Positions 45,342 through 64,000 of a stretch of 64,000 nt of DNA are shown piece by piece. The notes below the pieces were generated by a model that was not told where the DNA came from, made no database searches, and was given only the letters and a program-made list of their open reading frames with translations. This stretch comes from Leptospirillia bacterium. GTDB taxonomy: Bacteria > Nitrospirota > JACRHL01. The translations under genes were made by a program, and so were the position numbers. Location: assembly GCA_046754085.1 (NCBI GenBank), contig JBHHVE010000001.1, forward strand, positions 71,821 to 135,820. The letters are read 5' to 3'. Every line of letters begins with the position of its first letter. Positions within the stretch are counted from its first letter, which is position 1.

Positions 45342-45404
45342 AGGCGCACTGCGTCCACAGACCGCCCCGGTTCGGGGCGGTTGCGATCTAAAGGGAAGAG
45401 CCAA

Positions 45405-46211: not shown

Positions 46212-46224
46212 CCTGCAGGGGGGG

Positions 46225-47622: not shown

Positions 47623-47701
47623 AGCCGCAGGCCCCACGCGCCCGCCGGAGGGAACCGGTGGGCCGGGCCGTGGATGTTAAGGAACGGGAAAGGAGTCCAC
47701 A

Positions 47702-50287
47702 TTGAGACGCTACGTTGAGGCCATTTTGAAGTGGCCGCTCGTCACCATCCTGGCGCTGCTTCTGGTGACGGTGTTTTTTGCCGCTCAGGTCGGCCATCTG
47801 AAAATGGTGCTGGACCCCAAAAGGATCCTGCCCCAGAGCCACCCGTTCGTTCAGCTTAACAACAAAATCGAGGAACACTTCGGCGGCAGCCGGGTGGTGG
47901 TGATCGGGGTCACGGTGAAGGAGGGGGACATCTTCAACCCCGATACACTGGGCAAGATCAAGCGTATCACCGAGGCGGTCAAGGGGGTGGACGGCATCCT
48001 TGAGGAGAACGTGATCTCCATCGCCGACCGCAAGATCAAGTACATCAAGTCCACCACGGACGGCCTCGACATCCGTCGCATGATGGGGGAGGTTCCGACC
48101 ACCCCGGAGGGTCTTGCCCAACTGCGCGAGAACGTCTTCATCAACGACATGTATGTCAATTCACTGGTTTCGGAAGACGGCAAGAGCGCCGCCATCATCA
48201 CCGACTTCAGCGGCGGTGGCGGCTCCTCCGACTGGTGGGACAAGATGATGGCGGACAGCTCCTTTATCCAGATCCCCGATCTGGTCACCGAGGCGGTGGC
48301 CGCCGAGGAGTGGACCGCCGAGGAGATGGAAGCCTGGTGGGCCAGCCAGGGCGGTAAACCGTGGGAACAGGGGGCAAAAGGCGCCACCGGAGCCACCGGA
48401 GCCACCGGGGCGGCCGAAGGTGCTGACACCGCTCCGGCGGAGATCGTTGCCATGCCGGAAGACGGCAACTGGGAGGAGTTCGCCGCCCAGTGGTACGTGC
48501 CCGACTCCAAGATTTACGAGAACCTGGAAGCCATCGCCGCCCGGGAGCGCGACGCCAACACCAGCGTACACCTGGGTGGCCTTCCCATTGCCCTGGCGTT
48601 TCTGGAAAAAGACGCCCTCCTGATGAACCAGTTGGTGTTTCCGATCGCCGTGGGGGTGGTGCTGGTGGTGCTGTTCGGTGCGTTCTTCAGCGCCCAGGGT
48701 GTGATTATTCCGCTGTTGACCGCGACCCTGAGCGTGATCTGGGCGCTGGGGGCGATGGCGATCTTCAAAATTCCCCTCGACCCGTGGACCCAGACCCTGA
48801 CGCCGATTTTGATCGTGGCCATCGCCGCCGGCCATTCCATTCAGATTCTCAAACGCTATTACGAGGAGATGGGCCGAACCGGGGGAGACAACCGGGAATC
48901 GGTGCTGATCGCCACCACCAAAATCGGCCCGGTGATGATTACCGCGGGTCTGGTGGCTGCGGCCAGCTTCGCCTCGCTGATCACCTTCGATTTAAAAACA
49001 TTTCAGTCGTTCGGCATGTTTACCGCGTTTGGTATCCTGTCGGCGCTGGCGCTGGAGATGTCCTTTATCCCGGCGCTCCGTTCCATGCTGCGCGCGCCTT
49101 CGGAGGCGGCGCTCGAGCGGATGACCGGCCGCAAGGGGTGGATTGACCGGGCCGGGGAGATGCTGGCGTCCCAGGCGGTGGGCGAGCGTCCGCGCGTTGT
49201 TTTGTACTCCGTCATCGCGGTGCTGCTTGTCTCTCTGGCGTTTTCCGGCAACGTGGTGGTGAACAACTCCCTTAAGGGGCAGTTTTTCGAGGACACCCAA
49301 CTCAGAGTCGACGAGGCCGCCATCAACACCGCCTTTGGCGGCACCACCACCTTCTACGTGCTGATCGAGGGGGAAGAACCGGGGGCGCTCAAGGATCCGG
49401 AGGTGCTCAAGGGGGTGGAGCGTCTGCAAAAGCGGTTCGAGGCGGTGTCCGGGGTTGGCAAGACCCAGTCCTACGTGGATTACGTGAAGAAGATGAACCG
49501 CTCCTTCAATGCCGATGACCCGGCGTTTGATGTGGTGCCGGATCGACGTGAGGAGGTGTCGGACTTCCTGTTCCTCTACTCCATCTCCGGCAACCCGGCG
49601 GACTTCCGGCGGCTGGTGGACTACGACTATCAGAAGGCGGTGCTGTGGGCCTTTTTGAAGGACGACAGCACCCGGCTGGCGGAGGAGTTGATCAACATCA
49701 CCGAGTCCTTCGCCAAGGATAACTTCCCGGAAGGTGTGAGCGTCGGGGTGGCGGGCAGTTCGCCCGTGACGGTAGCCCTGAACGACACCATCGTCGACGG
49801 CAAGCTGCGTAACATCCTGCAAATCGGCAGTATCACCTTCCTGATTTCCTGCATCGTGCTGCGCTCGTTCCTGGGCGGTTTTCTGGTGCTGGTGCCGCTG
49901 CTCTCCGCAGTGACCATCAACTTCGGCATTATGGGTGCCTTCGGCATCACCCTCGGCATCGGCACCGCGACCATCTCGGCCATGGCGGTCGGCATCGGCG
50001 CGGACTTTGCGATCTATATCCTGTTTCGCTGCCGCGAGGAGTTTGCCCGTGCCGGAGACGTGACGGAAGCGGTACGGGCCACGGTTCAGACCGCGGGCAA
50101 GGCGGTGATTTTCGTTGCCCTGGCCATCGGGCTGGGGTGCGCCACCCTGTCGGTGGCGGGCTATTACCGCCACATGGAAGGGGTCCTGATTCCATTGGCC
50201 ATGTTAACCGGCAGTCTGGGCGCCCTGACGATTCTGCCGACGATCGCATTCAAAATGCGGCCGGCGTTTATTTTTAACCGGAGGTAA
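47702..50287 (+). CDS. MMPL/RND-superfamily exporter (HpnN-like)
   Basis: 861 aa. Two 6-TM bundles (IAVGVVLVVLFGAFFSAQGVIIPLL... and FLVLVPLLSAVTINFGIMGAFGI...), each preceded by a large periplasmic domain. This is the MMPL architecture. Confidence 0.85.
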   Translation: MRRYVEAILKWPLVTILALLLVTVFFAAQVGHLKMVLDPKRILPQSHPFVQLNNKIEEHFGGSRVVVIGVTVKEGDIFNPDTLGKIKRITEAVKGVDGILEENVISIADRKIKYIKSTTDGLDIRRMMGEVPTTPEGLAQLRENVFINDMYVNSLVSEDGKSAAIITDFSGGGGSSDWWDKMMADSSFIQIPDLVTEAVAAEEWTAEEMEAWWASQGGKPWEQGAKGATGATGATGAAEGADTAPAEIVAMPEDGNWEEFAAQWYVPDSKIYENLEAIAARERDANTSVHLGGLPIALAFLEKDALLMNQLVFPIAVGVVLVVLFGAFFSAQGVIIPLLTATLSVIWALGAMAIFKIPLDPWTQTLTPILIVAIAAGHSIQILKRYYEEMGRTGGDNRESVLIATTKIGPVMITAGLVAAASFASLITFDLKTFQSFGMFTAFGILSALALEMSFIPALRSMLRAPSEAALERMTGRKGWIDRAGEMLASQAVGERPRVVLYSVIAVLLVSLAFSGNVVVNNSLKGQFFEDTQLRVDEAAINTAFGGTTTFYVLIEGEEPGALKDPEVLKGVERLQKRFEAVSGVGKTQSYVDYVKKMNRSFNADDPAFDVVPDRREEVSDFLFLYSISGNPADFRRLVDYDYQKAVLWAFLKDDSTRLAEELINITESFAKDNFPEGVSVGVAGSSPVTVALNDTIVDGKLRNILQIGSITFLISCIVLRSFLGGFLVLVPLLSAVTINFGIMGAFGITLGIGTATISAMAVGIGADFAIYILFRCREEFARAGDVTEAVRATVQTAGKAVIFVALAIGLGCATLSVAGYYRHMEGVLIPLAMLTGSLGALTILPTIAFKMRPAFIFNRR

Positions 50288-50345
50288 TCGGAACGGAGTT
50301 CACTTCGCGGGCAATGCCCGGCAAGCATTCCAAACCTGAAATCGG

Positions 50346-51392
50346 ATGGCGTCTTTCGTGTGCATAAAGGGCCGGGGGGTGGCCCAATGGACGTCCGGGC
50401 GGTGGATTGTGGCCGCCCTGTGGGTGTTCCTGACATTTCTGGTTCTGCCGGCTTCGGGGATGGCCGCGGAAGATGAGACCCGGGTGGAAGATGAACCGCT
50501 CACCTTCGGCCGCTGGAGTGTGGGTCTGTCCGCCGGTTCCTATGCCCCCGACATCCGCCAGTTGAACAATGCCCTGGGTACCGCGGGGCTTGTGCTGTTG
50601 CAGGATCCCAACTTCCTGATTCCGAGAAACGAGAACCTGCCGGTGGAGATCCGCGACGTGGCGGTGCCGGAATTGACCTCCAACGGCAGTTACGGCCTGG
50701 AGGTCCAGTGGCACTGGCATCCGCGCACCTCTTTTGTGGTGTCTCTGGCCAACTGGCAGGGCCGAACCGGGGCCTCCGACCAAATCACCATGGCCCTGCG
50801 CTCCAACCTGCCGCCGATCCAGGTGCCGCGCACGGCGCGCTATAACCTGAACATCAACCAGATCTGGCTGGGCTGGCGCTATCAGTTTTTCAAACGCCCG
50901 GAGATCGGACAGCTCTACGTCAATATCGGCCTGGCCGGGTTTGCCGTGGTGGATCTCAGCATGGATGCCCTGCTGAAGGTGAGCGAAGCCAGTGATGAAA
51001 TTGATCTTAGCTTTGCATCGATCAGTTCCACCGAGGTCCACGGCACCGCCTACTCCACCAAATATGGCGCCGGTGGCGAATTTTTCCTGTCCAAGCACAC
51101 GTCCGTGGGGTTCCACGTCAACTATGTATTCGGTGAACTCGATTCGTTTCGGGTGAGCCGCTACTTCCCGTCCGGCTTCTCGGAACTACCGCCGGTCCCG
51201 CCGCAGGCGACCGGCGGCTTGCCGGACAATACGCTGCCCCCGAACTTTGCACAGCCCAATCCGGGCGAGCAGTTGCAGGAGGGGGACATCACCTATCCCA
51301 CGGAGGGGGTGGAGCGGCTCGACAATCCCCGCCCCGTGTTAATGGACCTGGATGGCTGGGAGATGGGTCTGATGTTCCGAGTCTACTACTAA
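50346..51392 (+). CDS. Putative outer-membrane beta-barrel protein
   Basis: 348 aa. Signal peptide (WIVAALWVFLTFLVLPASGMAAEDE). Alternating hydrophobic beta-strand pattern with aromatic C-terminus ...GLMFRVYY. Confidence 0.45.
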   Translation: MASFVCIKGRGVAQWTSGRWIVAALWVFLTFLVLPASGMAAEDETRVEDEPLTFGRWSVGLSAGSYAPDIRQLNNALGTAGLVLLQDPNFLIPRNENLPVEIRDVAVPELTSNGSYGLEVQWHWHPRTSFVVSLANWQGRTGASDQITMALRSNLPPIQVPRTARYNLNINQIWLGWRYQFFKRPEIGQLYVNIGLAGFAVVDLSMDALLKVSEASDEIDLSFASISSTEVHGTAYSTKYGAGGEFFLSKHTSVGFHVNYVFGELDSFRVSRYFPSGFSELPPVPPQATGGLPDNTLPPNFAQPNPGEQLQEGDITYPTEGVERLDNPRPVLMDLDGWEMGLMFRVYY

Positions 51393-51761
51393 AAAAACCG
51401 CAAAAGCCGCCGGGAGGGGACTGATTGCGTCGCCGGTACGGTGCTCGGCCCCCCCGACATACCGGAGTACGCCTTTGCCCCCTGTATTTTCGGCTGAAAA
51501 GTCTATTTTGACGTCGGTTTCCGGCGCTTCCCGGGTTTTTTTAAGGAAATGCATCCGTTTTAATCCGAAATCTTCTGGTGCTGAAATGCCGGGTTTCCGG
51601 CAAAAATCCCTCCTTCGTGGGATTTTTATATAACAAATCAATAGGTTACGGATAGCTCCGCGTTGGCCTGAAATGTGCATTTACCACCCTTGGTGCGCTT
51701 TTGCTTAAGGCGTTTCCCGCCGAAAAGTATGGCGATGGTGTGATGGCGATGGTGGTGGTGA

Positions 51762-54700
51762 ATGGCTCAGGCCCAGAACGAACAACATAGCCACGGGTCC
51801 GCAAGACGCCTGGGCAGGGCTTTTGCTCTGCTCCTGCTGTTCTGCGGCGGTGTCTTTGCCGGATGGCAGGCCATTCAGGAAGGCACCCGTGCCGCCGACC
51901 CCGTCACCGTCCAGGGGCCGTCCTATCAGGCCCGGTTCGACGGTTCCGGCCTCTCCATGCACATGGAGCGCGGCCGCAAGTATCGCCTCGACATCGGTAC
52001 CGAGCGGGTGACCACCGGCGAATACACCCTTTTCGACGCAAAACTGGGCGGTGCCCTCTGGGAGATGGAGCCGCATCTGACGTTTGACTCCCTGACCGAC
52101 GTCACCAGCTTTTCCCGTAAATCCTCCAGCGCCGCCCGCTACCGCCTGGCGAAAGGCCTGAGTCAGCGTTTCATCGCCCGTGACTTTGGTGTCGAACAGA
52201 TCTGGGAGGTCGAAAAAATACCCTCCGGCGGCGATCTGACCATCACCAACCGCATCGTCACCCCCTTGACCGCCCGCACCGAAGCCGGCGGTGTGGTGCG
52301 TTTCTATACCGCCGATGGTCACTACGTTACCTCCTACGGTCAGGCCACCATCACCGACCGTGCCGGACGCCGCCTGCTGGTGGATTCCAAGCTGGCCGCC
52401 GTGGACGCCGATGCGGCCGATGCATCCGGTGGGTCGGGCGAGCCCGGTGACAACCATTATCTGATCGCCCTGAACCTGCCGGAAGAGTGGCTTGCGACTG
52501 CCGAATACCCGGTCATCATCGATCCGCTCATCGGGGTCGAGATTCCGGTGGCGTCCATTCCCGGTACCCTGGAGCACGATCCGGAGATTGCCGTTGGCGG
52601 CACCGAGCACCTGGTGGTGTTTACCGAGCAGGTGGGCGCCCTGGGGGCGGTACACGGCATCCGTCTGACCATCAACGGCGCGGTGCAGCTTCCCGAGATT
52701 ACCATCAGCGGCGCCGGTGACGCCCACTCCCCCGACGTGGCTTTCGATGGCACCGACTGGTTCGTAACGTGGGTGGAGGACGACGACATCATGGGCGCGT
52801 TCGTGGACGCCACCGGTGTGGTGAGCGGCACCGTTGCGCTCACCGCCGACGGCGCCACCCTCATCGATGCGGTGCCCAAGGTGGCCTACAATGTCACCAA
52901 TAACCAGTTCCTGGTGGTGTGGGAACGCGACATCAACATCTCGGCCGCCTTCGTGAACGGCACCACCGGTCTGCCCGGTGCGGTGTTCAATATCTCCGCC
53001 ACCACGGCCACCGAGACCAACCCGAGCTTGTCGTTCATCCCCCAGAAGGGGCAGGGTAATGACACCGTTGACTACTTCATGGTGGGCTGGGTGGCAGACA
53101 ACAACGTCTACGCCACCCGGGTGGATGGCACCGGCACCGTGGATCCGGTGGCCCTCACCATCATGGACGGCGGCATCACCGGGGCCACCCTGGCCACTTC
53201 GGTGGCGGTGGGCAGCGACCCCACCGACTGGGCGGCCAACTTCATCATCATCTGGACCGACGACCGCAACGCCGCGGGCGATGAGGATGTGTGGGCGGTG
53301 CGGGTGACCAAGGAAGCCACCCTCATGGACGTGACCGACATTTCGGTGTCGGCGGCGCCCGGCAGTGAAACCGAGGTGGACGCCCTGCTGGTGGGGGGCT
53401 CCACCTACTTCATCACCTGGACCCACCGGGCCCGCGCCTCCCAACCGGATATCTTTGCCTCCCGCCTGCTGTTCGGCAGCGGTCTGGTGATGGATCCGGG
53501 CGGCATCGAGGTGGCCATCACCGGCAGCGCCCAGACCCAGCCCGCCATCTCCTGGGACGGCACCAACTACATGGTGGTGTGGAGCGACGACCGGGATACC
53601 GGTTTCTCCGACGTCTATGCCCAGCGCATTCCCAACGTTTTCCCGGAAGCGCCCACGGCGCTCGTTGCCGCCGATACCCCTGGCGACCTGGGCGGCAGTG
53701 TGGACCTGTCCTGGAGCCCCTCGGCGAGCGCCGGCGTGACCCAGCAACGCATCTACCGGGAAACCGCCGCCGACGGTCAGTTCACCAACCTGATCCAGAC
53801 CATCACCGGCAACGCCACCAACACCTACACCGACACCGACCCGGCCCTGGTGGACGACACCACCTATTACTATGTGGTGCGCGCCTTCGACGGCACCTAC
53901 GAGAGTGGCGACTCGCTGATGGCCTCCGCCGCGCCTCACGACAACATTACGGTCAACGCCTTCTTCAGCAGCATCTCCCAGGCGGTTTCCGAGGGTGGCC
54001 CTCCGGGAACCACCAACGCGACCGCCCGGGTGCAACTCACCAACCTGTCCGGCACGGACGTGACGGTGCCGTTTACGGTGGATGTCCTGTCCACCGCCAC
54101 CCTCGGTACCGACTACACCATCAGCCCGGCCTCACCGCTCACCATCACGGCGGGACAGGCATTTGCCGACATCACCGTCACCCTTACCGGCGACACCGAC
54201 TTCGAGCCGGATGAGACCGTGGTGATTAATCTGGGCACGCCCACCGGTGCGGGTTTGGGCACCCCCACCAGCCACACGGTAAACATCACCAACGACGATA
54301 TACAGCCCTCCGTCACCTTCGCCCTCGGCGCCCAGAACAGCAACGAGGGGTTGGCGGCGACGGTCCCGGTGACACTGAATCTTTCCGCACTCTCGGCCTG
54401 GGATGTGACGGTGCCGTACACCATCGGCGCCGCTTCCACCGCCAGCGGCGCCGGCGTGGATTACTCCCTGGCCCCGGCGGGTCAGGTGGTGATTTCCGCC
54501 GGTCAGATTTCCGCCGATCTTTCCGTGACAGTGGTGAACGACCTGCTGCACGAGACCGCCAGTGAGACGGTGATTGTGGACATGGACACTGTGGGTCTGG
54601 TGAACGCCACCGCCGGCGCCACGGTGCAGCACACCCTGAACATCGTGGACGACGATACCGAACCGGTGGTGACCTTCGCACTCGGCGCATCGAGTATTTC

Positions 54701-57700
54701 CGAGGGTGCAGGGAGTTTCAATATTCAGGTGAATCTCGGCGCCGCATCGGGCCTCGATACGGACATCCCCTTTACCATCGACGGCGCCGGTACGGCCCTT
54801 GGGGCGGGGGTGGATTACACCATGCTGACCGCGTCTCCCCTGACGATTCCGGCGGGCAGCACTTCGGGTCAGATTCAGGTGCAGCTCACCGGGGACCTTC
54901 TGGACGAATACAATGAAACCCTCATCCTGAACATGGGGGTGCCGGTCAACGCCGTGACCGACGGCACCTCGATCACCCAGCACACCTTCACCATCAATGA
55001 TGATGATGTCACCCCGAGCGTAGCCTTCACCGCCGCCAGCCAGAGCAAGGCGGAAAACGGCGCCATGAGTCTTACCGTCCAGTTGTCGGCGGTGGCGGGA
55101 CGTGACGTGACGGTGCCGTTTAACGTGGACGCCATTTCCACCGCCACCGGGGGCGGCACCGACTACAGCATTCCCACGGTATCGCCGCTGGTTATCCCGG
55201 CGGGCAGCACCATCGGCGGCATTACCATTGATATCGCCCTGGATTCCCTGGACGAAAACGACGAGACGGTGGTGGTCAACATGGATACGGGTGGGCTGAT
55301 CAACGCCCTGCCTGGCGCCATCACTCAGCACACCGCCACCATCCTCGATGATGACGTGGCGCCGACGGTCACCGGACTGCTGGATGTCGCATCGATTCTG
55401 GAGGACACGGTGAGTGGCAGCGTCACCCTCACCCTGAGCCTGAATACCGCCTCCGGTCGGAATGTGAGCCTGCCGTTTACCCTGTCCGGCACGGCCCTCG
55501 AGGGCTCCGACTACACCGCCACGGCCAGCCCTGTGAGCATTACGGCCGGCACCCTGAGTACCAGCGTGGTCATCACCCTGATCGCCGACGCCCTGTACGA
55601 GGGCGACGAGACGGTGACCCTGACGATGGGCGCACCCGGCAACGCCACCCTGGGCGATAGCGGCATTTATACCGCCACCATTACCGACGACGATCTGGCG
55701 CCGACGGTGGACTTCCAGCTCCCCGTCAGCCAGAGCGGGGCCGAAAACACGGTGGGCAGCATGACCGCCACCGTGACCCTCTCCACCGTGTCGGGCAAGG
55801 ACACCACGGTCAACTATTCGGTGGGTGGAACCGCCTCGAACGGCTCGGACTTCACCATCAGCCCGGCTTCCCCCATCACGATTCCGGCGGGCGTCACCAC
55901 CCGCGACATCACGATCACCGTGCTGGACGATACCATCGACGAGCCGGACCAGACCGTGGTCCTGAATATCGGTTCATTGGTGAACGGTACCCCGGGCACC
56001 AACCTGACCCATACCGCCACCATCGTCGATAATGATGCAGCGCCGACGGTGTCGTTTGTGCCGGCAAGCCAAACCAGTCTGGGCCTTGAGAGTGGCGCCA
56101 TGAACCTGCTGGTGCAGCTCTCCCAGGTGTCGGAGAAGGTGGTCACCGTACCGTTCACCGTGGATGCCGCCAGCACCGCCACGCTCACCGACGACTACAC
56201 CTTGAGCCTGGCCTCCCCCCTCACGATTCCGGCAGGTGATCCGAGTGTCACCCAGACCATCAACATCGTGGGTGACGTCCTCGACGAGCTCAACGAAACG
56301 GTCATCCTCAACATGGATACCGTGGGTCTGGTCAACGCCGCTCCGGGGGCCGTGGTGGTGCATACCGCCACCATCGACGACAACGACAATCCGCCCACGG
56401 TGAGCTTTACTCCGGCTTCCTACCTCACCGACGAGGCGTTGGCCGCCACCGTGGTCGTGACCGCCCAGCTTTCGATAGCGTCCGGGCTGGAGGTGCAGGT
56501 GCCGTACGCGGTCAGCATTCTCTCCACGGCCACCGAGGGGCCGGATTACACTTTGAGTCCGGCCTCGCCCCTGATCATTCCCGCGGGTCAGACCACGGCC
56601 ACCCTGTCGGTGAGCGTGCTCGACGACCTGCTGTACGAGGGCATCAGCGAGGCGGTGATTATCGACATGGTGACCGGCGGGCTGGTGAACGCCGCCCCGG
56701 GGGCGACCACCCAGCACACCGTGACCATCAACGACAACGACCCCGACCCGGTGGTGACCTTTAACAACGCCATCTCCAGCTTCTCGGAAGGGGTGCCGGG
56801 CGGTATTGTGGATATCCGGGTGGATCTGGACACGGTTTCGGGCCGCGATACCGAGGTGCCGTTCAGCATCGACGCCGCCAGTACCGCCAGCGGGCCGGAC
56901 TACACGGTTCTGACCGCATCCCCCCTGATCATTGCGGAGGGCAGTGCCTTCGGCCTGATCCAGGTGCAGCTTTCCGGGGATGCTTTGGACGAGTACGACG
57001 AAACCCTCATCGTCAACATGGGCGTGCCGGTCAATGCGGTGACCGACGGCACTTCCATCACCCAGCACACCCTGACCATTCAGGATGACGACGCCACCCC
57101 GACGGTGACCTTCCCCACGGTCCCCGCATCCCTGTCCCAGTCAGAGACCGGCACCATGACGGTGACTGCCAGGCTGTCGGACCCATCCGGCCGCGATGTG
57201 ACGGTTCCGTTCACGGTGGACGCCGTTTCCACCGCCACCGGAGGCGGTGTCGATTACAGCATCAGTGCATCGCCGCTGACCATTCCCGCCGGCTCCACCA
57301 ATGCCTCCATTTCCATCAATATTGCCCTGGATGCCCTGGACGAGAACGATGAAACGGTGGTGCTTAACATGGACACGGTGGGTCTGGTCAACGCCGTGCC
57401 GGGCACCGTCACCCAGTACACCACCACCATCCTGGACGACGACGCCCTGCCGGCAGTGACCTTCCGCGACGTGGCCCTGGCGAGTCTCGGGGAGAGCGGG
57501 ACCATCGACATCTGGGTGGATATCGCTCCGGTATCAGGCCGGAACGTTACGGTTCCGTTCACCGTGGATGCCGCCTCCACCGCCATTGGCGGCGGCACCG
57601 ACTACAGCATCTTGCCCGCGTCCCCCCTGACGATTCCGGCCGGTTCGACGGGTGAGCTGATTACCCTCACCATCGCCGGCGACCTGCTGTACGAGGGTGA

Positions 57701-60700
57701 CGAGACGGTGATCCTCAACATGGGGGCGCCGGTGAATGCGGATTCCACCGGCCAGACCACGGTGCATACCGCCACCCTTACGGACGACGATGCCGTGCCG
57801 ACGGTGGACTTCCAGTCCGCCACCCAGAGCGGCGCCGAGAACACCGTCGGCACCATGTCCGCCACGGTGGTGCTCTCCGCCGTTTCGGGCCTTCCCACCA
57901 CGGTCAATTTCAGTGTGGGCGGAACCGCCTCGAACGGTCCGGACTATACTGTCAACCCGGCGGCGGCGCTGGTGATTCCAGCCGGTAGCAGCAGCGGCAA
58001 TATTGTGATAACCGTCCTGGACGACACTGTGGACGAGGCCGACCAGACGGTGGTGCTGAGCATCGATTCGCTGGTGAACGGCGCCCTCGGCGCCAGCCTG
58101 ACCCACACGGCCACCATTCTCGACAACGACGCCGCGCCCACGGTCTCCTGGAACCTGCTCAACCAGACCAGCACCCAGGAACTCGGTACCATGAACCTGA
58201 AGGCCACCCTTTCCGCGGTGTCGGAACTGGATATCACGGTGCCCTACAGCCTCAACCCGGCAAGCACCGCCACCCTGACCACCGACTTTGCGATCAGCCC
58301 CGCCTCTCCGCTCACGATTGCCGCGGGGAGTCCGGACGCCACCATCACCATCACCATCGCGACGGATATCCTCGATGAGGACGACGAGTCGGTGATCGTG
58401 ACCATGGAGACGGCGGGGCTGATCAATGCCACCGCGGGTGCGATTGCCGAACACACCGCATTTATCAAGGACGACGATAACACCCCGGTGATCACCTTTA
58501 CCTCCGCCGGTGCCTCCGGCGCGGAGGAACTGGTGGGCGCCTTTACCGTCACCGCACAGATCGATGCGGTGTCAGGCCGGGACGTGATTGTGCCGTTCGA
58601 TCTGCTGGCCTCCACCGCCACCGGCGGCGGCACCGACTACAGCTTGAGCAACGCAAGCCCCCTGGTGATTTCCCAGGGCGCCACCATCGCCAGCACCACC
58701 ATCACCATCGTGGACGACCTGCTGGACGAGGCGGACGAAACCGTGGTGGTCAACATGGATACGGTGGGGCTGACCAACGCGTTGACCAATGGGGGCTCCA
58801 TCACGGACTACACCCTGACCATCCTGGACAACGACGCCACCCCGACGGTGACCTTCACCACGGGCTCACAGTCCACCTCCGAGCCTCTGGCGCAAACGGT
58901 GAGCATCACCGCCCAGCTGTCCGCCCTTGCGGGCCGGGACGTGACGGTGCCCTACACCCTCGATGCCCTCTCCACCGCCACCAGCGGGGTGGATTACAGC
59001 CTTACCCCGGTGTCGCCGCTGGTCATTCCCGAGGGCCAGCTTTCCGCTTCGCTTTCGTTGACGGTGTCCGACGACCTGTTGCACGAGTCCACGGGTGAGA
59101 CGGCGATCATTAATATGGATACCGCCGGTCTGGTGAACGCCACCGCCGGGGCCACCGTGCAGCACACCGTTACCATCACCGACGACGACCCCGCGCCGAC
59201 CGTCACCTTCGGCACGGCGACGTCCAGTGCCCTGGAGGGTGTCGGCACCACCAACATTCAGGTGAACCTGAACGCCGCCTCCGGGATGGTCACGGAAATT
59301 CCCTTCACCATCGATGCCGCGAGTACGGCGCTCGGTGCGGGTGAGGACTACACGGTACTGACGGTTTCCCCGCTGACCATTCCCAAGGGTGCCCTGTCGG
59401 CGAGTATCTCTGTGCAGATCAATGACGACCTGCTGGACGAGTTGGGCGAAACCGTGATCGCCAACATGGGCGTGCCCCTGTATGCGGTCACCGACGGTGG
59501 ATCGATCACCCAGCACACCCTGACGATTACCGACAACGACGCCACCCCGACAGTGGCGTTCAGCAAGGCGTCCGAGCAGTCTCTGAATGAGACCGGAAGC
59601 GTCACGGTGGATGTGACCCTGTCGGCGGTGTCGGGTCTGCCGGTCACCGTGCCCTATACGGTGAACGGCCTCAGCACGGCCATCGACCCGGACGATTACA
59701 CCATCACCCCGGTGTCGCCGGTCAGCATTCCGGCCGGGAATCCGTCCGCCACCACCACCGTCAACATCGTGCCCGATATCCTCTCGGAGGAGAACGAGAC
59801 GGTGATCCTCGACATGGGCACCCCCACCAATGCCGGGCAGGGGGGTGTTGTCCAGTTCACCGGTACCATCACCGACGACGACAACGTGCCGTCGGCCTCG
59901 TTCACCACCACCACCGGCAGCACCCCGGAAGTGAGCGGAAACACCCTGACCGCCACCGTTCAGCTCTCCAAGACGGCGGTTGGCAACGTGACGATTCCGT
60001 ACTCCCTTACCGGTACCGCCTTCGATACGGTGGACTACACCGCAAGCCCCCTGAATCAACTGGTTATTCCGGGTGGACAGTTGACCGGCGACATTGTCGT
60101 TACCGTGGTGGGGGATGTCCTCGACGAGCCGGATGAAACCGTGGTTATCACCCTGGGGGCGGCCATTGGCGCATCGGTCACCCTGCCCAACACCTACACC
60201 GGCACCATCACCGACAACGATGCGGCGCCCACGGTTGGCTTTGACCTGGCCACGTCGAGCGGCGACGAGAGCCTGACCCCGGCCAGCTTCGCCGTATCCC
60301 TGTCCGCCGTCTCGGGCCGTACCGTAACGGCGGACTACGCAGTGGGTGCCGGCGGTACCGCCCTTGGCTCCGGCATCGATTACACCCTGGCGGCGGGCAC
60401 CCTGACCTTTACCCCCGGCCAGCTCACCCAGTACGTCGACGTCGATATTGTCGATGACCTCATCGACGAGGCCGACGAAACCGTGGTGGTGGATCTCACC
60501 ACCGCCACCAACGGCACTGTGGATGGGCTTGCCGCCAGCCACACCTACACCATTCTCGACAACGACGTCTCCACCATTTCCATCGATGATGTGGCGGTGA
60601 CCGAAACCGCGGGTGGCGTGAACGCGGTGTTCACCGTGAGCCTGTCGACCCCCGCTGCCGCCATTGTGACCGTGGACTGGGCCACGGTGGATGGCACCGC

Positions 60701-63700
60701 CACGGTCGCGGACCTGGACTACAGCAATGCCTTTGGCACCGTGACATTCAATCCGGGGGTGACCTCCCAGTCGGTGATCGTTCCGATCCTGGACGATATC
60801 CTGGATGAGGATGCCGAGACCTTTACCGTGGCCCTGTCCGGCGCCGTGAACGCCGCCATTTTCGACGCCAGCGGTATCGGCACCATCAACGACGACGATG
60901 CCCTTCCGGTGGTCGGATTCGACCTCACCGCAGGTTCCGCTGCTGAAAGCGTGGCCACGGTCAACGTCGCCGTCTCCCTCAATCTGGCCTCGGGCCGTAC
61001 GGTGAGCGTGGACTACTCGGTGAACGGGGGCAGCACCGCCACCGGCGGCGGCACCGACTACACCCTGGCGGCGGGCACCGTGACCTTCCTGCCGGGCGAG
61101 ACCACAAAAAACATCGCCATCACCGTCCATGAAGACGTGATTGACGAGGCCAACGAGACCCTGATTCTCGATCTGTCGGGCGAGCTTAACGCCGCCCTGT
61201 CGGTGACCAACCGCCAGTACACCCAGACCATTACCGACAACGACACCGCCACCATCGCCATCACCGACGTGGGCGTGACCGAGGTTCCGGGCGGCGTGAA
61301 CGCGGTGTTCGACGTCACCCTTTCCACACCGAGCGCCGTTACCGTGACCGTGAACTGGGCCACCGTGGACGGTACCGCCACCGTGGTGGGCGCCGATTAC
61401 ACGGGCGGTTCCGGTGTCCTGACCTTCCTGGCCGGAGAGACCGCCAAGACGGTTTCCGTGGCGGTGCTGGACGATGCCCTGGACGAGGATGCGGAAACCT
61501 TCACGGTGGTGCTTTCCGGTGCCTCCGGCGCCACCATTCTGGATGACACCGGCATCGGTACCATCACCGACGACGACCCGATCCCGACCATCGGCTTCAA
61601 CCTGACCGCTTCCAGCGGCGCGGAGACGCTCACCCCGGCCAGCCTCGCCGTCTCCCTGTCGGCCCCCTCCGGGCGCAGTGTCACGGTGGATTACGCGGTG
61701 AACGCCGCCAGCACCGCCGGCCGCCTCGGGGAGGACTACACCCTGGCGGATGGCACCCTGACCTTCGGCCCGGGCATTACCACCCGGACCATCGACATCG
61801 ACATCGTCGACGACCTGCTGGACGAGGGTAACGAAACCGTGGTGGTGGATCTGTCCAATGGCGTCAATGCCACTGTCGACATTCCGACCCAGACCCATAC
61901 CTATACCATCATCGACGATGACGCCGCCGCCATCTCCATCAACGACGTGGCGGTGACCGAGGCCGTGGGCGGCGTGAACGCGGTGTTCAACGTGACCCTT
62001 TCCGCGCCGTCCGCATCCTCGGTGACCGTCAACTGGGCCACCGCCGACGGCACCGCGCTCGCCGGCGTTGACTATACGGCCGGCTCCGGCACTCTCACCT
62101 TCCTGTCCGGCGAGACCCTCAAAACGGTGACCGTGGCGGTGTCCGACGACATCCTGGACGAAGATACCGAGAGCTTCACCGTCGGCCTGTCGCTCCCGGT
62201 GGGCGCCACCATCGCCGATGCCACCGGTCTTGCCACCGTGGCCGATGACGATGCGCTTCCCACGGTTGGTTTCGGCGTTACCACGGGCAGCTCACTGGAG
62301 AGCGTCCTGACGGTCAACACCGCGGTCTTTTTAAGCACGGCTTCCGGGCGCACGGTGACCGTGGATTACGCGGTGAATGCCGCCAGTACCGCTACAGGCG
62401 CCGGCACGGACTACACCCTGGCGGCGGGCACCCTGACCTTCCTGCCGGGCGAGACCAGCCAGAACATCGTCACCACCGTGGTGGACGATGTGATTGACGA
62501 GGCCAACGAGACCATCATCATCGACCTGTCCGGCGAGGTGAATGCCGCCCTGTCCGTTTCCAACCGGCAGTACACCCACACCATCACCGATGACGACACC
62601 GCCACCCTCTCTATCGATGACGTGGCGGTCACCGAGGCCGTGGGTGGCGTCAACACCGTATTCACCGTGGCGCTCTCCACCGTGAGCGCGTCCACCGTGA
62701 CGGTCAACTGGGCCACCGCCAACGGCACCGCCACCGCGGGCGCCGACTATGCAAGCGCCAGCGGAAGCCTCACCTTCACCCCGGGGCAGACGTCCCAGAC
62801 GGTGACCGTGGTGACCCTGGACGACGCCCTGGACGAGGATCCGGAAACCTTCGATGTGAATCTCTCGCTGGCCTCCGGCGCGGGCATCCTCGACGGTACC
62901 GGTGTGGCCACCATCACCGACGATGATGCCTTGCCCACCGTGGCCTTTAACCTGATTGCCTCTTCCAGCGACGAGGCGGTGCCGACCGTGACCCTGGATG
63001 TGACCCTGTCCCCCGCTTCGGGCCGTCAGGTGACCACCGACTTTGCCGTGAATGCGGCCAGCACCGCCACCGGAGGCGGGGTGGACTACACCCTGACGGC
63101 GGGTACCCTGACCTTTGCCGCCGGAGAGGTTGCCAAGACCATTACCGTTACCGTGGTGAACGATTCTCTGGTGGAGGGCAACGAAACCATCGTCGCGGAC
63201 CTGACCGGCGCCACCAACGCCTCTGTGAGCGGGACCAACGGCAGCCACACCCTGACCATCGTCGACAACGATTCGGCCAGCCTCACCATCGGCAATGCCA
63301 CCGTGACCGAAGGTCCGGCGGCGGTGGCGAGCTTTACCGTCACCATGTCCGCCGTATCCACCGGCGCCGTGACGGTGGACTACACCACGGTGGACGGCAC
63401 CGCCACCACGGCGGCGGGCGATTACACCGCCGCCTCCGGCACCCTGACTTTTGCCCCCGGCGAGACCACCAAGGTGATCGATGTGACGGTTGCCGATGAC
63501 ACCCTGGACGAAAATGCCGAGAGCTTCACCGTGGTGCTCTCCAACGTCGCGGGTGCCACCCTCCTGGGCAATACCGGCCTTGGTACCATCAACGACAACG
63601 ACGCCGCGCCCACGGTGGGCTTTGCACTGACCGCCGACAGCACCGTGGAGAATGTCACCCCGGCGAATCTGGCGGTGAACCTTTCCGCCCCTTCGGGCCT

Positions 63701-64000
63701 GACCGTCACCGTCGACTACGCCGTGAATGTGGCCAGCACCGCCACCGGCGGCGGCGTGGACTACACCCTGGCGGCGGGCACCCTGACCTTTAACCCGGGG
63801 CAGACCACCCAGAACGTCGTCATCGCCGTGGTCAACGACACCGCCGACGAGGGTGACGAAACCGTGGTCGTGGACCTGTCGAACGCGGGCAATGCCACCC
63901 TCGACCTGGCGGCGGATCAGCACATCCACACCATCACCGATGACGATACCGCCTCGCTCCTGATCGGGGACGCCACCGTCACCGAGGCGGTGGGCGGCGT
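51762..64000 (+). CDS. Giant secreted/surface Calx-beta repeat protein (adhesin-like), 5' partial: more than 4079 codons in the window with no stop before the window end
   Basis: ATG at 51762 with an in-frame TGA immediately upstream. Signal peptide (RRLGRAFALLLLFCGGVFAGWQA), a ~600-aa N-terminal repeat domain, an FN3-like domain (DLSWSPSASAGVTQQRIYRE...TTYYYVVRAFDG), then at least 29 tandem Calx-beta domains of ~115 aa. All listed minus-strand ORFs in 51705-64000 are antisense shadows. The open reading frame was followed by manual translation. Confidence 0.85.
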   Translation, partial: MAQAQNEQHSHGSARRLGRAFALLLLFCGGVFAGWQAIQEGTRAADPVTVQGPSYQARFDGSGLSMHMERGRKYRLDIGTERVTTGEYTLFDAKLGGALWEMEPHLTFDSLTDVTSFSRKSSSAARYRLAKGLSQRFIARDFGVEQIWEVEKIPSGGDLTITNRIVTPLTARTEAGGVVRFYTADGHYVTSYGQATITDRAGRRLLVDSKLAAVDADAADASGGSGEPGDNHYLIALNLPEEWLATAEYPVIIDPLIGVEIPVASIPGTLEHDPEIAVGGTEHLVVFTEQVGALGAVHGIRLTINGAVQLPEITISGAGDAHSPDVAFDGTDWFVTWVEDDDIMGAFVDATGVVSGTVALTADGATLIDAVPKVAYNVTNNQFLVVWERDINISAAFVNGTTGLPGAVFNISATTATETNPSLSFIPQKGQGNDTVDYFMVGWVADNNVYATRVDGTGTVDPVALTIMDGGITGATLATSVAVGSDPTDWAANFIIIWTDDRNAAGDEDVWAVRVTKEATLMDVTDISVSAAPGSETEVDALLVGGSTYFITWTHRARASQPDIFASRLLFGSGLVMDPGGIEVAITGSAQTQPAISWDGTNYMVVWSDDRDTGFSDVYAQRIPNVFPEAPTALVAADTPGDLGGSVDLSWSPSASAGVTQQRIYRETAADGQFTNLIQTITGNATNTYTDTDPALVDDTTYYYVVRAFDGTYESGDSLMASAAPHDNITVNAFFSSISQAVSEGGPPGTTNATARVQLTNLSGTDVTVPFTVDVLSTATLGTDYTISPASPLTITAGQAFADITVTLTGDTDFEPDETVVINLGTPTGAGLGTPTSHTVNITNDDIQPSVTFALGAQNSNEGLAATVPVTLNLSALSAWDVTVPYTIGAASTASGAGVDYSLAPAGQVVISAGQISADLSVTVVNDLLHETASETVIVDMDTVGLVNATAGATVQHTLNIVDDDTEPVVTFALGASSISEGAGSFNIQVNLGAASGLDTDIPFTIDGAGTALGAGVDYTMLTASPLTIPAGSTSGQIQVQLTGDLLDEYNETLILNMGVPVNAVTDGTSITQHTFTINDDDVTPSVAFTAASQSKAENGAMSLTVQLSAVAGRDVTVPFNVDAISTATGGGTDYSIPTVSPLVIPAGSTIGGITIDIALDSLDENDETVVVNMDTGGLINALPGAITQHTATILDDDVAPTVTGLLDVASILEDTVSGSVTLTLSLNTASGRNVSLPFTLSGTALEGSDYTATASPVSITAGTLSTSVVITLIADALYEGDETVTLTMGAPGNATLGDSGIYTATITDDDLAPTVDFQLPVSQSGAENTVGSMTATVTLSTVSGKDTTVNYSVGGTASNGSDFTISPASPITIPAGVTTRDITITVLDDTIDEPDQTVVLNIGSLVNGTPGTNLTHTATIVDNDAAPTVSFVPASQTSLGLESGAMNLLVQLSQVSEKVVTVPFTVDAASTATLTDDYTLSLASPLTIPAGDPSVTQTINIVGDVLDELNETVILNMDTVGLVNAAPGAVVVHTATIDDNDNPPTVSFTPASYLTDEALAATVVVTAQLSIASGLEVQVPYAVSILSTATEGPDYTLSPASPLIIPAGQTTATLSVSVLDDLLYEGISEAVIIDMVTGGLVNAAPGATTQHTVTINDNDPDPVVTFNNAISSFSEGVPGGIVDIRVDLDTVSGRDTEVPFSIDAASTASGPDYTVLTASPLIIAEGSAFGLIQVQLSGDALDEYDETLIVNMGVPVNAVTDGTSITQHTLTIQDDDATPTVTFPTVPASLSQSETGTMTVTARLSDPSGRDVTVPFTVDAVSTATGGGVDYSISASPLTIPAGSTNASISINIALDALDENDETVVLNMDTVGLVNAVPGTVTQYTTTILDDDALPAVTFRDVALASLGESGTIDIWVDIAPVSGRNVTVPFTVDAASTAIGGGTDYSILPASPLTIPAGSTGELITLTIAGDLLYEGDETVILNMGAPVNADSTGQTTVHTATLTDDDAVPTVDFQSATQSGAENTVGTMSATVVLSAVSGLPTTVNFSVGGTASNGPDYTVNPAAALVIPAGSSSGNIVITVLDDTVDEADQTVVLSIDSLVNGALGASLTHTATILDNDAAPTVSWNLLNQTSTQELGTMNLKATLSAVSELDITVPYSLNPASTATLTTDFAISPASPLTIAAGSPDATITITIATDILDEDDESVIVTMETAGLINATAGAIAEHTAFIKDDDNTPVITFTSAGASGAEELVGAFTVTAQIDAVSGRDVIVPFDLLASTATGGGTDYSLSNASPLVISQGATIASTTITIVDDLLDEADETVVVNMDTVGLTNALTNGGSITDYTLTILDNDATPTVTFTTGSQSTSEPLAQTVSITAQLSALAGRDVTVPYTLDALSTATSGVDYSLTPVSPLVIPEGQLSASLSLTVSDDLLHESTGETAIINMDTAGLVNATAGATVQHTVTITDDDPAPTVTFGTATSSALEGVGTTNIQVNLNAASGMVTEIPFTIDAASTALGAGEDYTVLTVSPLTIPKGALSASISVQINDDLLDELGETVIANMGVPLYAVTDGGSITQHTLTITDNDATPTVAFSKASEQSLNETGSVTVDVTLSAVSGLPVTVPYTVNGLSTAIDPDDYTITPVSPVSIPAGNPSATTTVNIVPDILSEENETVILDMGTPTNAGQGGVVQFTGTITDDDNVPSASFTTTTGSTPEVSGNTLTATVQLSKTAVGNVTIPYSLTGTAFDTVDYTASPLNQLVIPGGQLTGDIVVTVVGDVLDEPDETVVITLGAAIGASVTLPNTYTGTITDNDAAPTVGFDLATSSGDESLTPASFAVSLSAVSGRTVTADYAVGAGGTALGSGIDYTLAAGTLTFTPGQLTQYVDVDIVDDLIDEADETVVVDLTTATNGTVDGLAASHTYTILDNDVSTISIDDVAVTETAGGVNAVFTVSLSTPAAAIVTVDWATVDGTATVADLDYSNAFGTVTFNPGVTSQSVIVPILDDILDEDAETFTVALSGAVNAAIFDASGIGTINDDDALPVVGFDLTAGSAAESVATVNVAVSLNLASGRTVSVDYSVNGGSTATGGGTDYTLAAGTVTFLPGETTKNIAITVHEDVIDEANETLILDLSGELNAALSVTNRQYTQTITDNDTATIAITDVGVTEVPGGVNAVFDVTLSTPSAVTVTVNWATVDGTATVVGADYTGGSGVLTFLAGETAKTVSVAVLDDALDEDAETFTVVLSGASGATILDDTGIGTITDDDPIPTIGFNLTASSGAETLTPASLAVSLSAPSGRSVTVDYAVNAASTAGRLGEDYTLADGTLTFGPGITTRTIDIDIVDDLLDEGNETVVVDLSNGVNATVDIPTQTHTYTIIDDDAAAISINDVAVTEAVGGVNAVFNVTLSAPSASSVTVNWATADGTALAGVDYTAGSGTLTFLSGETLKTVTVAVSDDILDEDTESFTVGLSLPVGATIADATGLATVADDDALPTVGFGVTTGSSLESVLTVNTAVFLSTASGRTVTVDYAVNAASTATGAGTDYTLAAGTLTFLPGETSQNIVTTVVDDVIDEANETIIIDLSGEVNAALSVSNRQYTHTITDDDTATLSIDDVAVTEAVGGVNTVFTVALSTVSASTVTVNWATANGTATAGADYASASGSLTFTPGQTSQTVTVVTLDDALDEDPETFDVNLSLASGAGILDGTGVATITDDDALPTVAFNLIASSSDEAVPTVTLDVTLSPASGRQVTTDFAVNAASTATGGGVDYTLTAGTLTFAAGEVAKTITVTVVNDSLVEGNETIVADLTGATNASVSGTNGSHTLTIVDNDSASLTIGNATVTEGPAAVASFTVTMSAVSTGAVTVDYTTVDGTATTAAGDYTAASGTLTFAPGETTKVIDVTVADDTLDENAESFTVVLSNVAGATLLGNTGLGTINDNDAAPTVGFALTADSTVENVTPANLAVNLSAPSGLTVTVDYAVNVASTATGGGVDYTLAAGTLTFNPGQTTQNVVIAVVNDTADEGDETVVVDLSNAGNATLDLAADQHIHTITDDDTASLLIGDATVTEAVGG
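53945..64000 (+). repeat. Tandem ~345-bp coding repeats (Calx-beta domains), at least 29 copies; from ~60225 they are organised as alternating A/B two-domain super-units (~690 bp)
   Basis: Repeat boundaries (DDD/DND..P.V.F) recur every 335-365 bp from ~54290 to ~63945. Units after 60200 alternate between an ...LP-VGF... type and an ...ISIDDVAVTE...GGVNAVF...VNWATVDGTA type, with ~80% nucleotide identity between cognate units. Confidence 0.85.

Follow-up and report, generated by a model that had tools for sequence, protein, structure and literature searches.

The distal Calx-beta array of a giant gene from an uncultured Leptospirillia bacterium raises the question of how, and how long ago, its alternating domains were copied. 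An earlier note on the 64,000-nt stretch of DNA analyzed here (the window) had ascribed the array to recent unequal crossing-over or concerted evolution of a two-domain cassette. We found that the distal array is an old, well-diverged two-domain Calx-beta cassette copied many times, which is real but ordinary, given the age of the copies and the frequency of this layout among proteins of the kind. As judged from its sequence, this region would be where the distal stalk of a giant secreted protein begins, with both the stalk and its surface location being predicted.

The gene and its product

The giant gene starts at 51762 on the forward strand, and the window contains its 5' 12.2 kb (51762–64000), over which the frame is open for 4,079 codons up to the window end. 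The encoded 4,079 residues are identical to the first 4,079 residues of P0130, the full NCBI protein MFQ5507807.1, which is named "Calx-beta domain-containing protein, partial" and derives from a Leptospirillia metagenome-assembled genome (MAG). MFQ5507807.1 is partial at no fewer than 6,721 amino acids, its contig end would correspond to window coordinate 71924, and the gene therefore spans at least 20 kb with a reading frame uninterrupted for 6,721 codons and at least 53 Calx-beta domains. DNA-level results end at position 64000, and codons 4080–6721 were compared as protein only. The Pfam Calx-beta profile (PF03160; curated cut-off, 27 bits) matched 59856–63998 with 549 bits (E = 8e-168, 12 matched stretches), in agreement with the NCBI product name. 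The codon set is strongly biased, with a GC3 of 0.84.

At the N-terminus, a likely Sec-type signal peptide (aa 1–33; 51762–51860, forward strand) can be read off the translation; RRLGR forms its basic stretch and AFALLLLFCGGVFA its hydrophobic core, and cleavage would occur at VFA/G. A visible motif of about seven repeats of approximately 50–55 residues, together with AF2 and Foldseek results, points to a beta-propeller-like head (aa ~257–626; 52530–53639, forward strand). The pLDDT of the AF2 model was 72–92 over most of the head, with a few blocks at 56–61, and was below 50 in the remainder of the model, and the Foldseek matches of the head were assorted propellers (neuraminidase, lectin, WD40, and TolB, with E values down to 2e-10). 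Comparison of the N-terminal 733 residues with 5.8 billion proteins gave nearest relatives of 25–31% identity (best match, 25%), the protein itself not being among the matches, and no close relative of the propeller head was found among these proteins. The head is followed by a weak fibronectin type III-like segment (aa 646–717; 53697–53912, forward strand), which scored 21.3 bits against Pfam fn3, below the 25-bit cut-off, and across which AF2 confidence was low. The genes upstream encode a DUF1302 protein, an MMPL/RND-type transporter, and an OMP beta-barrel, and no type I secretion system (T1SS) genes were found upstream of the giant gene within the window. The apparent N-terminal Sec signal would speak against the RTX/type I secreted adhesin family.

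Two domain types alternate in the distal array

The Calx-beta array within the window was cut into domains D1–D29. From 60219, two domain types alternate strictly, type A of 115 aa (D19, 21, 23, 25, 27, and 29) and type B of 110–111 aa (D20, 22, 24, 26, and 28), with a period of 675–678 nt. Segmentation and identity define super-unit 1 (60219–60896; A, D19, 60219–60563; B, D20, 60564–60896), super-unit 2 (60897–61574; A, D21, 60897–61241; B, D22, 61242–61574), super-unit 3 (61575–62249; A, D23, 61575–61919; B, D24, 61920–62249), super-unit 4 (62250–62924; A, D25, 62250–62594; B, D26, 62595–62924), and super-unit 5 (62925–63599; A, D27, 62925–63269; B, D28, 63270–63599), all on the forward strand, the last being the most divergent and falling into a "gamma" class in the class analysis. 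Super-unit 6 (63600–64000, forward strand) consists of A (D29, 63600–63944) and 18 codons from the start of B (D30), which is cut by the window end and continues in P0130. With five full super-units and 1.2 domains in the window, the alternating pairs from approximately 60225, repeated at least five times, were as previously described.

A self-comparison had been proposed as a check of this array, and it gave clear cassette periodicity at 675 nt and its multiples. When 60225–64000 was compared with itself in frame, identity was highest at an offset of 675 nt, reaching 52.4% where the background was 35.1 ± 1.8%, with further peaks at 1350, 2025, and 2703 nt, while the one-domain offset (339 nt) reached only 43%; the strongest similarity thus lies beyond the one-domain offset, as in a higher-order repeat. 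A repeat search recovered six copies at spacings of 678, 678, 675, 675, and 675 nt. Because the raw DNA self-comparison and the repeat search show the 675–678-nt period unsegmented, we rejected the idea that the alternation is a by-product of segmentation. Tandem Repeats Finder, run on 45000–64000, did not detect the array, the copies having diverged too far.

Nucleotide identity was 61–77% within type A, 60–73% within type B, and 47–59% between A and B. Domains two apart were on average 65.8% identical in DNA and those one apart 52.1% (domain-order shuffle, p ~0.001). The figure of ~80% nucleotide identity between super-units given in the earlier note did not hold, since whole super-units are 60.5–73.8% identical (mean, ~66%). 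The best single domain pair, D21/D25, reaches 77%, and only the best 99-nt windows, which sit on conserved motifs, reach 73–87%. Both shared stretches quoted in that note were located: the 46-mer at 61058 and 62411 with the one stated base different, and the 45-mer at 61953 with variants at 60597 and 61275 (6/45 mismatches each), 62628 (9/45), and 63978 (2/23 visible). The unit at approximately 63300 lacks the 45-mer.

Upstream of the alternation, segmentation, the identity matrix, and HMM classification define a proximal array of 18 "P"-type domains (D1–D18; 53949–60218, forward strand). Self-comparison, permutation, and repeat families show that this array also contains a higher-order repeat, namely a 6-domain unit in D2–D13 (54297–58481, forward strand), of which segmentation gives copy 1 as D2–D7 (54297–56384) and copy 2 as D8–D13 (56385–58481). 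Copy 2 is followed by a partial and rearranged third copy, D14–D17, up to 59879. The proximal self-comparison peaked at an offset of 2091 nt (approximately six domains), the six matched domain pairs had a mean nucleotide identity of 67.6% (permutation p = 1.5e-4), and repeat families found by the repeat search (D14–D17) agreed with the 6-domain pattern. The array does change at about 60225, in that A/B alternation begins at 60219, but to call this a switch is apt only in part, because the proximal array already has a 6-domain repeat of similar divergence and age.

Domains of all three types (P, A, and B) share two conserved acidic motifs, DDxxDExxE(T/S) and a terminal D(D/N)D, which align in sequence with the DDD..EE loop of NCX1 CBD1. 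The nearest solved structure by sequence was NCX1 CBD1/CBD2 (3US9, E = 1e-25). Through these conserved motifs, the domains may assemble into an extended, Ca2+-stiffened stalk.

The two-domain cassette is the unit of amplification

Across MFQ5507807.1, the A/B alternation spans at least 17.5 super-units, with copies of A and of B being 47–86% identical in amino acids. Twenty-four domains outside the training of the subtype HMMs kept the strict A/B order, with 136–165 bits for the winning subtype and 38–59 bits for the other. When the A-A and B-B identity matrices of 17 full super-units were compared, they were correlated (Mantel r = 0.44, p = 1.5e-4) only when each A was paired with the B after it, whereas shifted registers gave r = 0.07–0.08. 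Each A and the B that follows it thus share a duplication history, and the two-domain cassette, as originally suggested, is the unit of amplification. The same register-specific correlation led us to drop convergence without shared history as a source of the A/B likeness.

Similarity within the full protein peaks at offsets of 2, 4, and 14 domains, so that the periods are nested. The super-unit classes follow the order (a b a b g a b)(a b a b g a b)(a b a ...), and protein identity at the 7-super-unit offset is uniform at 61–70%. Super-units 8 and 10 (D33–34 and D37–38), which lie beyond the window, are 86% identical in amino acids in both A and B. Because they are more alike than their partners at the 7-super-unit offset (61–67%), a later local duplication or conversion event is likely to have occurred there.

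Cassette duplication and possible selection for unlike neighbors

The reading that we favor, with a probability of roughly 80%, is that the stalk was built by old tandem duplications of the A-B cassette, later by copying of larger blocks, and that the copies then diverged under purifying selection. The cassette, A then B, would have been tandemly duplicated again and again, probably by unequal recombination or replication slippage. Larger blocks copied later would have given the nested periods of 2, 4, and 14 domains, and the copies would then have diverged under purifying selection (dN/dS ~0.3–0.5) to 60–74% DNA identity. The resulting stalk would hold the N-terminal beta-propeller at a distance from the cell, and the alternation may persist partly since neighboring domains stay below approximately 50% identity.

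The last point could also be the main one. Selection itself might keep the alternation, either because identical neighbors co-misfold or because two kinds of linker set the stalk geometry, with two-domain cassettes being the only tolerated mode of growth. Adjacent A and B domains are 31–47% identical in amino acids compared with 47–75% for domains two apart, and in the giant Calx-beta proteins P0239, P0208, and P0243 neighbors are 36–46% identical even where domains two apart share 89–100%. A rule of less than 50% identity between neighbors and its misfolding rationale have been summarized (PMC8201768). The two junction types also differ consistently in all units; the B-to-A junction, "DDD-xLPTVGF", contains a proline, while the A-to-B junction, "DND-TATISI", is 3–4 residues shorter and has none. 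However, our survey of giant Calx-beta proteins, which covered the best 146 matches in 1.84 billion representatives, includes arrays with neighbors up to 100% identical (median, 49%), and therefore dissimilar neighbors are not required in the Calx-beta fold. Moreover, plain cassette duplication gives the same pattern without selection, and an A-B-A segment modeled with AF2 from a 5-row alignment reached a pLDDT of only 56, too low for use. We thus regard selection as the keeper of the alternation as possible but doubtful.

Age of the copies and recombination

The first interpretation of this array held that unequal crossing-over was recent or gene conversion is ongoing, and that the array is now unstable and differs in length between strains. 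Stretches of 21–33 nt common to different units and the 86% identity of super-units 8 and 10, which exceeds what the 14-domain block predicts, would fit such a history, as would the 95–100% identical two-domain cassettes of P0239 and P0208 and the difference of 482 aa between WP_242691634.1 (4,888 aa) and WP_207534374.1 (5,370 aa), which fall in one 90%-identity cluster. Within the window, the synonymous sites tell otherwise. Values of dS between same-type units were 0.57–1.12 (median, 0.74–0.80; apparent A versus B plateau, ~1.1), so that synonymous sites are near saturation; these values were obtained by NG86 uncorrected for the strong codon bias, and absolute ages are accordingly rough. The corresponding dN values were 0.18–0.45. 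Identities at the first, second, and third codon positions were 69, 74, and 56%, respectively, and not the near-identity, including synonymous sites, of a recently homogenized array. At columns with a conserved amino acid the same codon was used in 61% of cases, compared with 51% predicted by codon usage and 55% between unrelated domain types, that is, just 6 points above the latter.

Long exact repeats and conversion tracts suited to homologous recombination were likewise missing from the array in the window, in which only four 31-mers were repeated, no exact repeat reached 35 nt, and a Sawyer-type run test on 408 polymorphic sites detected no conversion tracts (best global p, 0.088). The shared 20–30-nt stretches are conserved motifs in a strongly biased codon set rather than fresh conversion tracts. 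Together with the 60–74% rather than 80% identity of whole super-units, these results already contradict recent crossing-over and ongoing concerted evolution for 60219–64000, and as an account of the whole array we consider them very unlikely. Because the DNA is so diverged, unequal recombination should be rare by now in the window part.

No second strain or ortholog was found in the searched protein, GTDB, and metagenome collections; setting orthologs against paralogs is how concerted evolution is classically tested. A 66-mer taken from the end of the window had no exact match in GTDB genomes, nor did an exact-DNA scan of JGI metagenomes give one. A search of GTDB genomes guided by the distal protein sequence found nothing closer than distant Calx-beta arrays of other phyla, with best-segment identities of 26–51%.

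Assembly of the region

The prediction that the region is prone to misassembly was in line with three assemblies ending within the array at one conserved motif, STATGGG(T/V)DY. Two Logan short-read contigs end at 58640, in the stretch encoding STATGGGTDY (58611–58640, forward strand), which by assembly comparison is the end point of both and has a 27-mer in common with 61034–61060, and the MAG contig ends at codon 6721. The two Logan runs, which reach 6.9 kb into the gene from its start, are identical to each other over that part, and the distal 5.4 kb of the window (58641–64000) comes from the MAG assembly alone. A pattern or unit number created by mis-joined or collapsed repeats is most improbable, for although the MAG contig ends within the array, and therefore the assembler could not resolve something downstream, the two independent Logan assemblies match 47876–58640 at 100%, the frame is open throughout, every unit in the window is distinct (77% DNA identity at most, exact repeats shorter than 35 nt) and therefore presents no ambiguity for an assembler with k-mers longer than the repeats, and collapse would give identical copies or frame breaks and not the ordered divergence and nested classes that are seen.

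Implications

A multi-domain period was present in 35 of the 146 giant Calx-beta proteins surveyed (commonest period, 2; some cassettes, 95–100% identical) and in 13 of 120 shorter homologs. This quick survey suggests that two-domain alternation is a common building mode of giant Calx-beta stalks, and it raises a family-wide question, namely the effect of neighboring domains on each other's folding. The nesting of periods 2, 4, and 14 and the recurrence of two-subtype alternation in roughly one in four giant Calx-beta proteins might even reflect a general rule that very long beta-sandwich stalks lengthen only via cassettes of unlike domains, because identical neighbors misfold; we consider this rule unlikely. 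If it were true, the array would document such a misfolding constraint in nature, in a protein with an orphan beta-propeller head from the little-known Leptospirillia. For GC-rich, codon-biased repeat genes in general, nucleotide stretches that seem recently shared can be conserved motifs, and synonymous-site checks are needed before concerted evolution is invoked. Since the gene extends far beyond the window and is closed by no available assembly, its annotation, domain count, and anchoring are provisional.

Comparison with known systems

Periscope proteins are bacterial surface proteins with stalks of variable length, in which highly identical DNA repeats drive recombination (Whelan et al., 2021, PMC8201768). 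The putative surface protein studied here resembles them in its long stalk of tandem globular domains, and the length variation foreseen in the earlier note is the periscope idea. In contrast to the long, highly identical DNA tandem repeats of periscope genes, the repeats here are well diverged and share only short exact stretches.

In RTX adhesins, Ca2+ stiffens the linkers between extender domains, and the extenders of RTX/T1SS adhesins (MpIBP, the LapA-like MhLap and AhLap, and SiiE) comprise tens of beta-sandwich domains in tandem, whose acidic junctions bind Ca2+ (PMC7493085). These extenders presumably act as rigid rods on which a binding module is projected. However, those adhesins use BIg-type domains, start without a Sec signal, and carry RTX repeats and a T1SS signal at the C-terminus, whereas this protein has Calx-beta domains, an apparent Sec signal, and no T1SS genes upstream, and its sequence ends before the C-terminus. 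The staphylococcal SasG/Aap proteins also have a stalk of two alternating module types, G5 and E, copied pairwise, but they differ in fold and are Gram-positive LPXTG proteins with near-identical repeats. The SasG/Aap family is mentioned in PMC9999234.

The CBD1-CBD2 tandem of NCX1 (PDB 3US9 and 8SGI) likewise places two unlike Calx-beta domains in a row, and its acidic loop aligns with DDxLDEDxE of type B. The NCX1 pair is eukaryotic, cytosolic, and regulatory, whereas the present array is amplified and predicted to be extracellular, with putative Ca2+ binding. With regard to the mode of growth, multi-domain expansion is usual for domain repeats, and super-repeats such as the 7-module units of nebulin and those of titin have been described (Bjorklund, Ekman and Elofsson, 2006, PMC1553488). 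As here, they show internal similarity peaks several domains apart, and therefore expansion by several domains per copying event, often in mid-array (PMC1553488). Such cases are mostly eukaryotic and often exon-linked, while the present one is bacterial and lies in a single open reading frame.

The closest parallels are other giant Calx-beta proteins. Two alternating subtypes likewise occur in P0239, P0208, WP_242691634.1 (Pedobacter sp.), WP_207534374.1 (Desertivirga arenae), P0135, and P0126, in which neighbors are approximately 36–46% identical and domains two apart far more alike, and P0269 and P0241 show nested periods of 2, 4, and 12–14 domains. The copies here are far more diverged than the 89–100% identical copies of P0239, P0208, and P0243, and the head has no close relative among the proteins searched. 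Among the best 146 matches in 1.84 billion representatives, this A/B pair occurred only in MFQ5507807.1, and the matches of its distal 1,260 residues among 5.8 billion proteins were at most 47% identical and mostly pure B-type arrays. The locus itself opens no new biological question.

Alternation of two Calx-beta subtypes

From 60219 onward, the Calx-beta domains encoded by a giant plus-strand ORF, which starts at 51762 and has no stop through the window end (4,079 codons), alternate between two subtypes, A and B. The Calx-beta family PF03160 scored 549 bits over 12 matched stretches in 59856-63998 alone. Domain boundaries were set by the conserved 'TI.DDD / P.V.F' junctions, giving 29 complete domains (D1-D29) and the beginning of D30 in the window. 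Raw DNA self-comparison of 60225-64000 at in-frame offsets showed its top peak at 675 nt (52.4% identity; background 35.1 ± 1.8%) and additional peaks at 1350, 2025, and 2703 nt, with 43% identity at the one-domain offset of 339 nt; the contrast between two-domain and one-domain offsets had p ~0.001 when the domain order was shuffled. A separate repeat search yielded six copies spaced by 678, 678, 675, 675, and 675 nt. In a codon-aware alignment covering every domain, type A domains (D19, D21, D23, D25, D27, and D29; 115 aa) shared 61-77% DNA identity with one another and type B domains (D20, D22, D24, D26, and D28; 110-111 aa) shared 60-73%, whereas A and B were 47-59% identical.

The self-comparison peak, the regular copies, and the higher identity within than between types establish the alternation described in the earlier note, which placed its start at 60225 and correctly counted at least five A/B pairs. 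The first stretch quoted there is present as quoted at 61058 and 62411. The second lies at 61953, and variants of it occur at 60597, 61275, 62628, and 63978 (6/45, 6/45, 9/45, and 2/23 mismatches, respectively). Its value of ~80% identity between super-units (an A domain and the following B) was too high, because whole super-units were 60.5-73.8% identical in DNA and 73-87% identity was limited to the best 99-nt windows, all on conserved motifs. The quoted stretches are the conserved peptide motifs DYTLAAGTLTF.PGET and VTE..GGVNAVF in preferred codons. The proposed switch to a higher-order repeat held in part: the A/B pattern does begin at 60219, but the proximal array already has its own six-domain repeat (54297-59879, plus strand), in which D2-D7 match D8-D13 (mean nucleotide identity 67.6%, p = 1.5e-4) and a partial third copy is rearranged (D14 resembles D4/D10, D15 D2/D8, D16 D3/D9, and D17 D7/D13).

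By sequence, type A (60219-63944) looks like a mosaic, proximal-like at both ends and B-like in the center. The 15 aligned columns at its start and the 15 at its end were 43% and 35% identical to the proximal type versus 14% and 18% to B, while the central 'GTLTF.PGET' segment was 59% identical to B versus 31% to the proximal type. Two antisense ORFs of 1,010 and 532 aa (minus strand, 58866-61898 and 62331-63929) lie wholly within the Calx-beta coding region and most likely reflect the scarcity of stop codons in GC-rich repetitive coding DNA rather than real genes.

Age of the copies

Recent unequal crossing-over or concerted evolution had been proposed as the origin of these repeats. Between same-type units, NG86 dS was 0.57-1.12 (median 0.74 for A and 0.80 for B) and dN was 0.18-0.45; dS between A and B was ~1.1, the level at which it plateaus in practice in a gene this codon-biased. 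The proximal repeat gave the same values as the distal same-type units, with a median dS of 0.75 (12 matched pairs, six from D2-D7/D8-D13 and six involving D14-D16). Identity at codon positions 1, 2, and 3 was 69, 74, and 56% with a GC3 of 0.84, and same-type units used the same codon at 61% of shared-amino-acid columns, compared with 51% expected from codon usage and 55% for unrelated domain types. The gene part of the window contained only four repeated 31-mers and no exact repeats of 35 nt or longer, and a Sawyer-type permutation test over 408 polymorphic sites detected no concordant runs of unusual length (best global p 0.088). Neither recent crossing-over nor ongoing homogenization is supported within 60219-64000.

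Growth of the array

When a profile of five super-units was searched against 1.84 billion representative proteins, a single protein of 6,721 aa (P0130) stood out with 6,420 bits, twice the next score. The window ORF is identical to its residues 1-4,079. This protein is NCBI MFQ5507807.1, 'MAG: Calx-beta domain-containing protein, partial [Leptospirillia bacterium]', from a 143,744-nt contig, and is the sole member of its 90% cluster. Its residues 4080-6721, which would fall at 64001-71924 beyond the window end, add at least 2,642 codons with strict A/B alternation. Subtype HMMs trained on window domains only were applied to the 24 unseen domains, and the winning subtype scored 136-165 bits, or 62 in the truncated final domain, versus 38-59 bits for the other. 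The architecture is 18 proximal-type domains, 17 AB pairs, and a final A; the protein ends '...STATGGGVDYT' within this A domain, so the contig stops inside the array.

Over the 17 complete super-units, the A-A and B-B identity matrices were correlated when each A was paired with the following B (Mantel r = 0.44, p = 1.5e-4) and not in shifted registers (r = 0.07-0.08), so A and the following B were copied together, as the two-domain cassette that the earlier note suggested. Clustering sorted the super-units into three classes, arranged as (a b a b g a b)(a b a b g a b)(a b a ...), and hence periods of 2, 4, and 14 domains are nested within one another. At the 7-super-unit offset, identity was uniform (61-70%). 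Super-units 8 and 10, beyond the window, share 86% amino acid identity in both A and B, a protein-level figure; judged from sequence, this is the youngest visible event in the array.

Assembly and length variation

Two contigs from Logan short-read assemblies, SRR29324594 and SRR29324593, encode the product of a neighboring gene and are 100% identical to the window from 47876 and 48026, respectively. Both end at 58640, the final base of an STATGGGTDY-coding stretch (58611-58640), and 13 kb downstream the MAG contig stops at the same motif, STATGGG(T/V)DY, which occurs 15 times in P0130. Because three independent assemblies end at one motif, fragmentation of assemblies at this array is real, in keeping with the assembly difficulty that the earlier note expected; longer k-mers shared within the part beyond the window are the probable cause. 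Mis-joining inside the window is unlikely, since every unit there is distinct; the independent match extends to 58640, and 58641-64000 derives from the MAG contig. Searches of a protein database, GTDB genomes, and metagenomes found no second strain or ortholog to set against the strain-to-strain length variation that the earlier note predicts.

N-terminal region and neighboring genes

The giant ORF likely begins with a Sec-type signal peptide, and ~720 aa without Calx-beta domains precede the array. A beta-propeller-like head (52530-53639, plus strand) is built from ~7 repeats, each roughly 50-55 aa long and carrying a motif resembling 'P.VAFDG..YLVVW.D.R....DIYA.R'. Its AF2 pLDDT was mostly 72-92, and Foldseek matches were mixed propellers (neuraminidase, lectin, WD40, and TolB). 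No Pfam family matched 52530-53639, and the closest sequence relatives, including Myxococcota 'tandem-95 repeat' proteins, were 25-31% identical.

Upstream on the plus strand (46096-51392) are genes for a DUF1302 protein and an MMPL/RND-type transporter, along with a weak match to an OMP beta-barrel; none of these upstream neighbors of the giant gene is a type I secretion gene. The 370-nt gap before it contains a terminator-like hairpin (51520-51535). Elsewhere, the window encodes an asparagine-synthase-type amidotransferase (1103-2971, minus strand) resembling an enzyme of the XrtA/PEP-CTERM system (503 bits against a cut-off of 817), a protein (15064-16587, plus strand) whose weak match is hydrazine-dehydrogenase-like (multihaem), and a fused MFS/spermidine-synthase-like protein (32111-35152, plus strand).

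Comparison with other Calx-beta and stalk proteins

Duplication of several domains at a time is a common expansion mode for domain repeats (PMC1553488). In a set of 120 homologs no longer than 2,202 aa, 13 had a clear multi-domain period and 22 had domain pairs at least 90% identical; in one of the 120, P0126, two subtypes alternate six times. A multi-domain period, most commonly 2, was present in 35 of the 146 best giant matches, several with nested periods of 2, 4, and 12-14 domains, and the specific A/B pair occurred among them in this protein only. Two of these giant matches, P0239 and P0208, share 100% and 95% identity two domains apart versus 40% and 37% between neighbors. Length differs between close relatives in an alternating Calx-beta array: Pedobacter sp. 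WP_242691634.1 (P0269; 4,888 aa) and Desertivirga arenae WP_207534374.1 (P0276; 5,370 aa), of one 90%-identity cluster, are 482 aa apart, or about four domains.

Among solved structures, the NCX1 CBD1-CBD2 pair was nearest (E = 1e-25), and the alignment includes the acidic loop. In RTX adhesin extenders, Ca2+ stiffens the linkers (PMC7493085), and by analogy the Calx-beta array would most likely be a stalk stiffened by Ca2+. The A/B array falls outside the DNA-identity definition of periscope proteins (PMC8201768); its adjacent domains share 31-47% identity, in line with the rule stated there that neighboring domains are below 50% identity. Since arrays with identical neighbors also occur among giant Calx-beta proteins, selection for alternation may at most have contributed. 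The array is an unremarkable and fairly old case of an architecture common in giant Calx-beta proteins.
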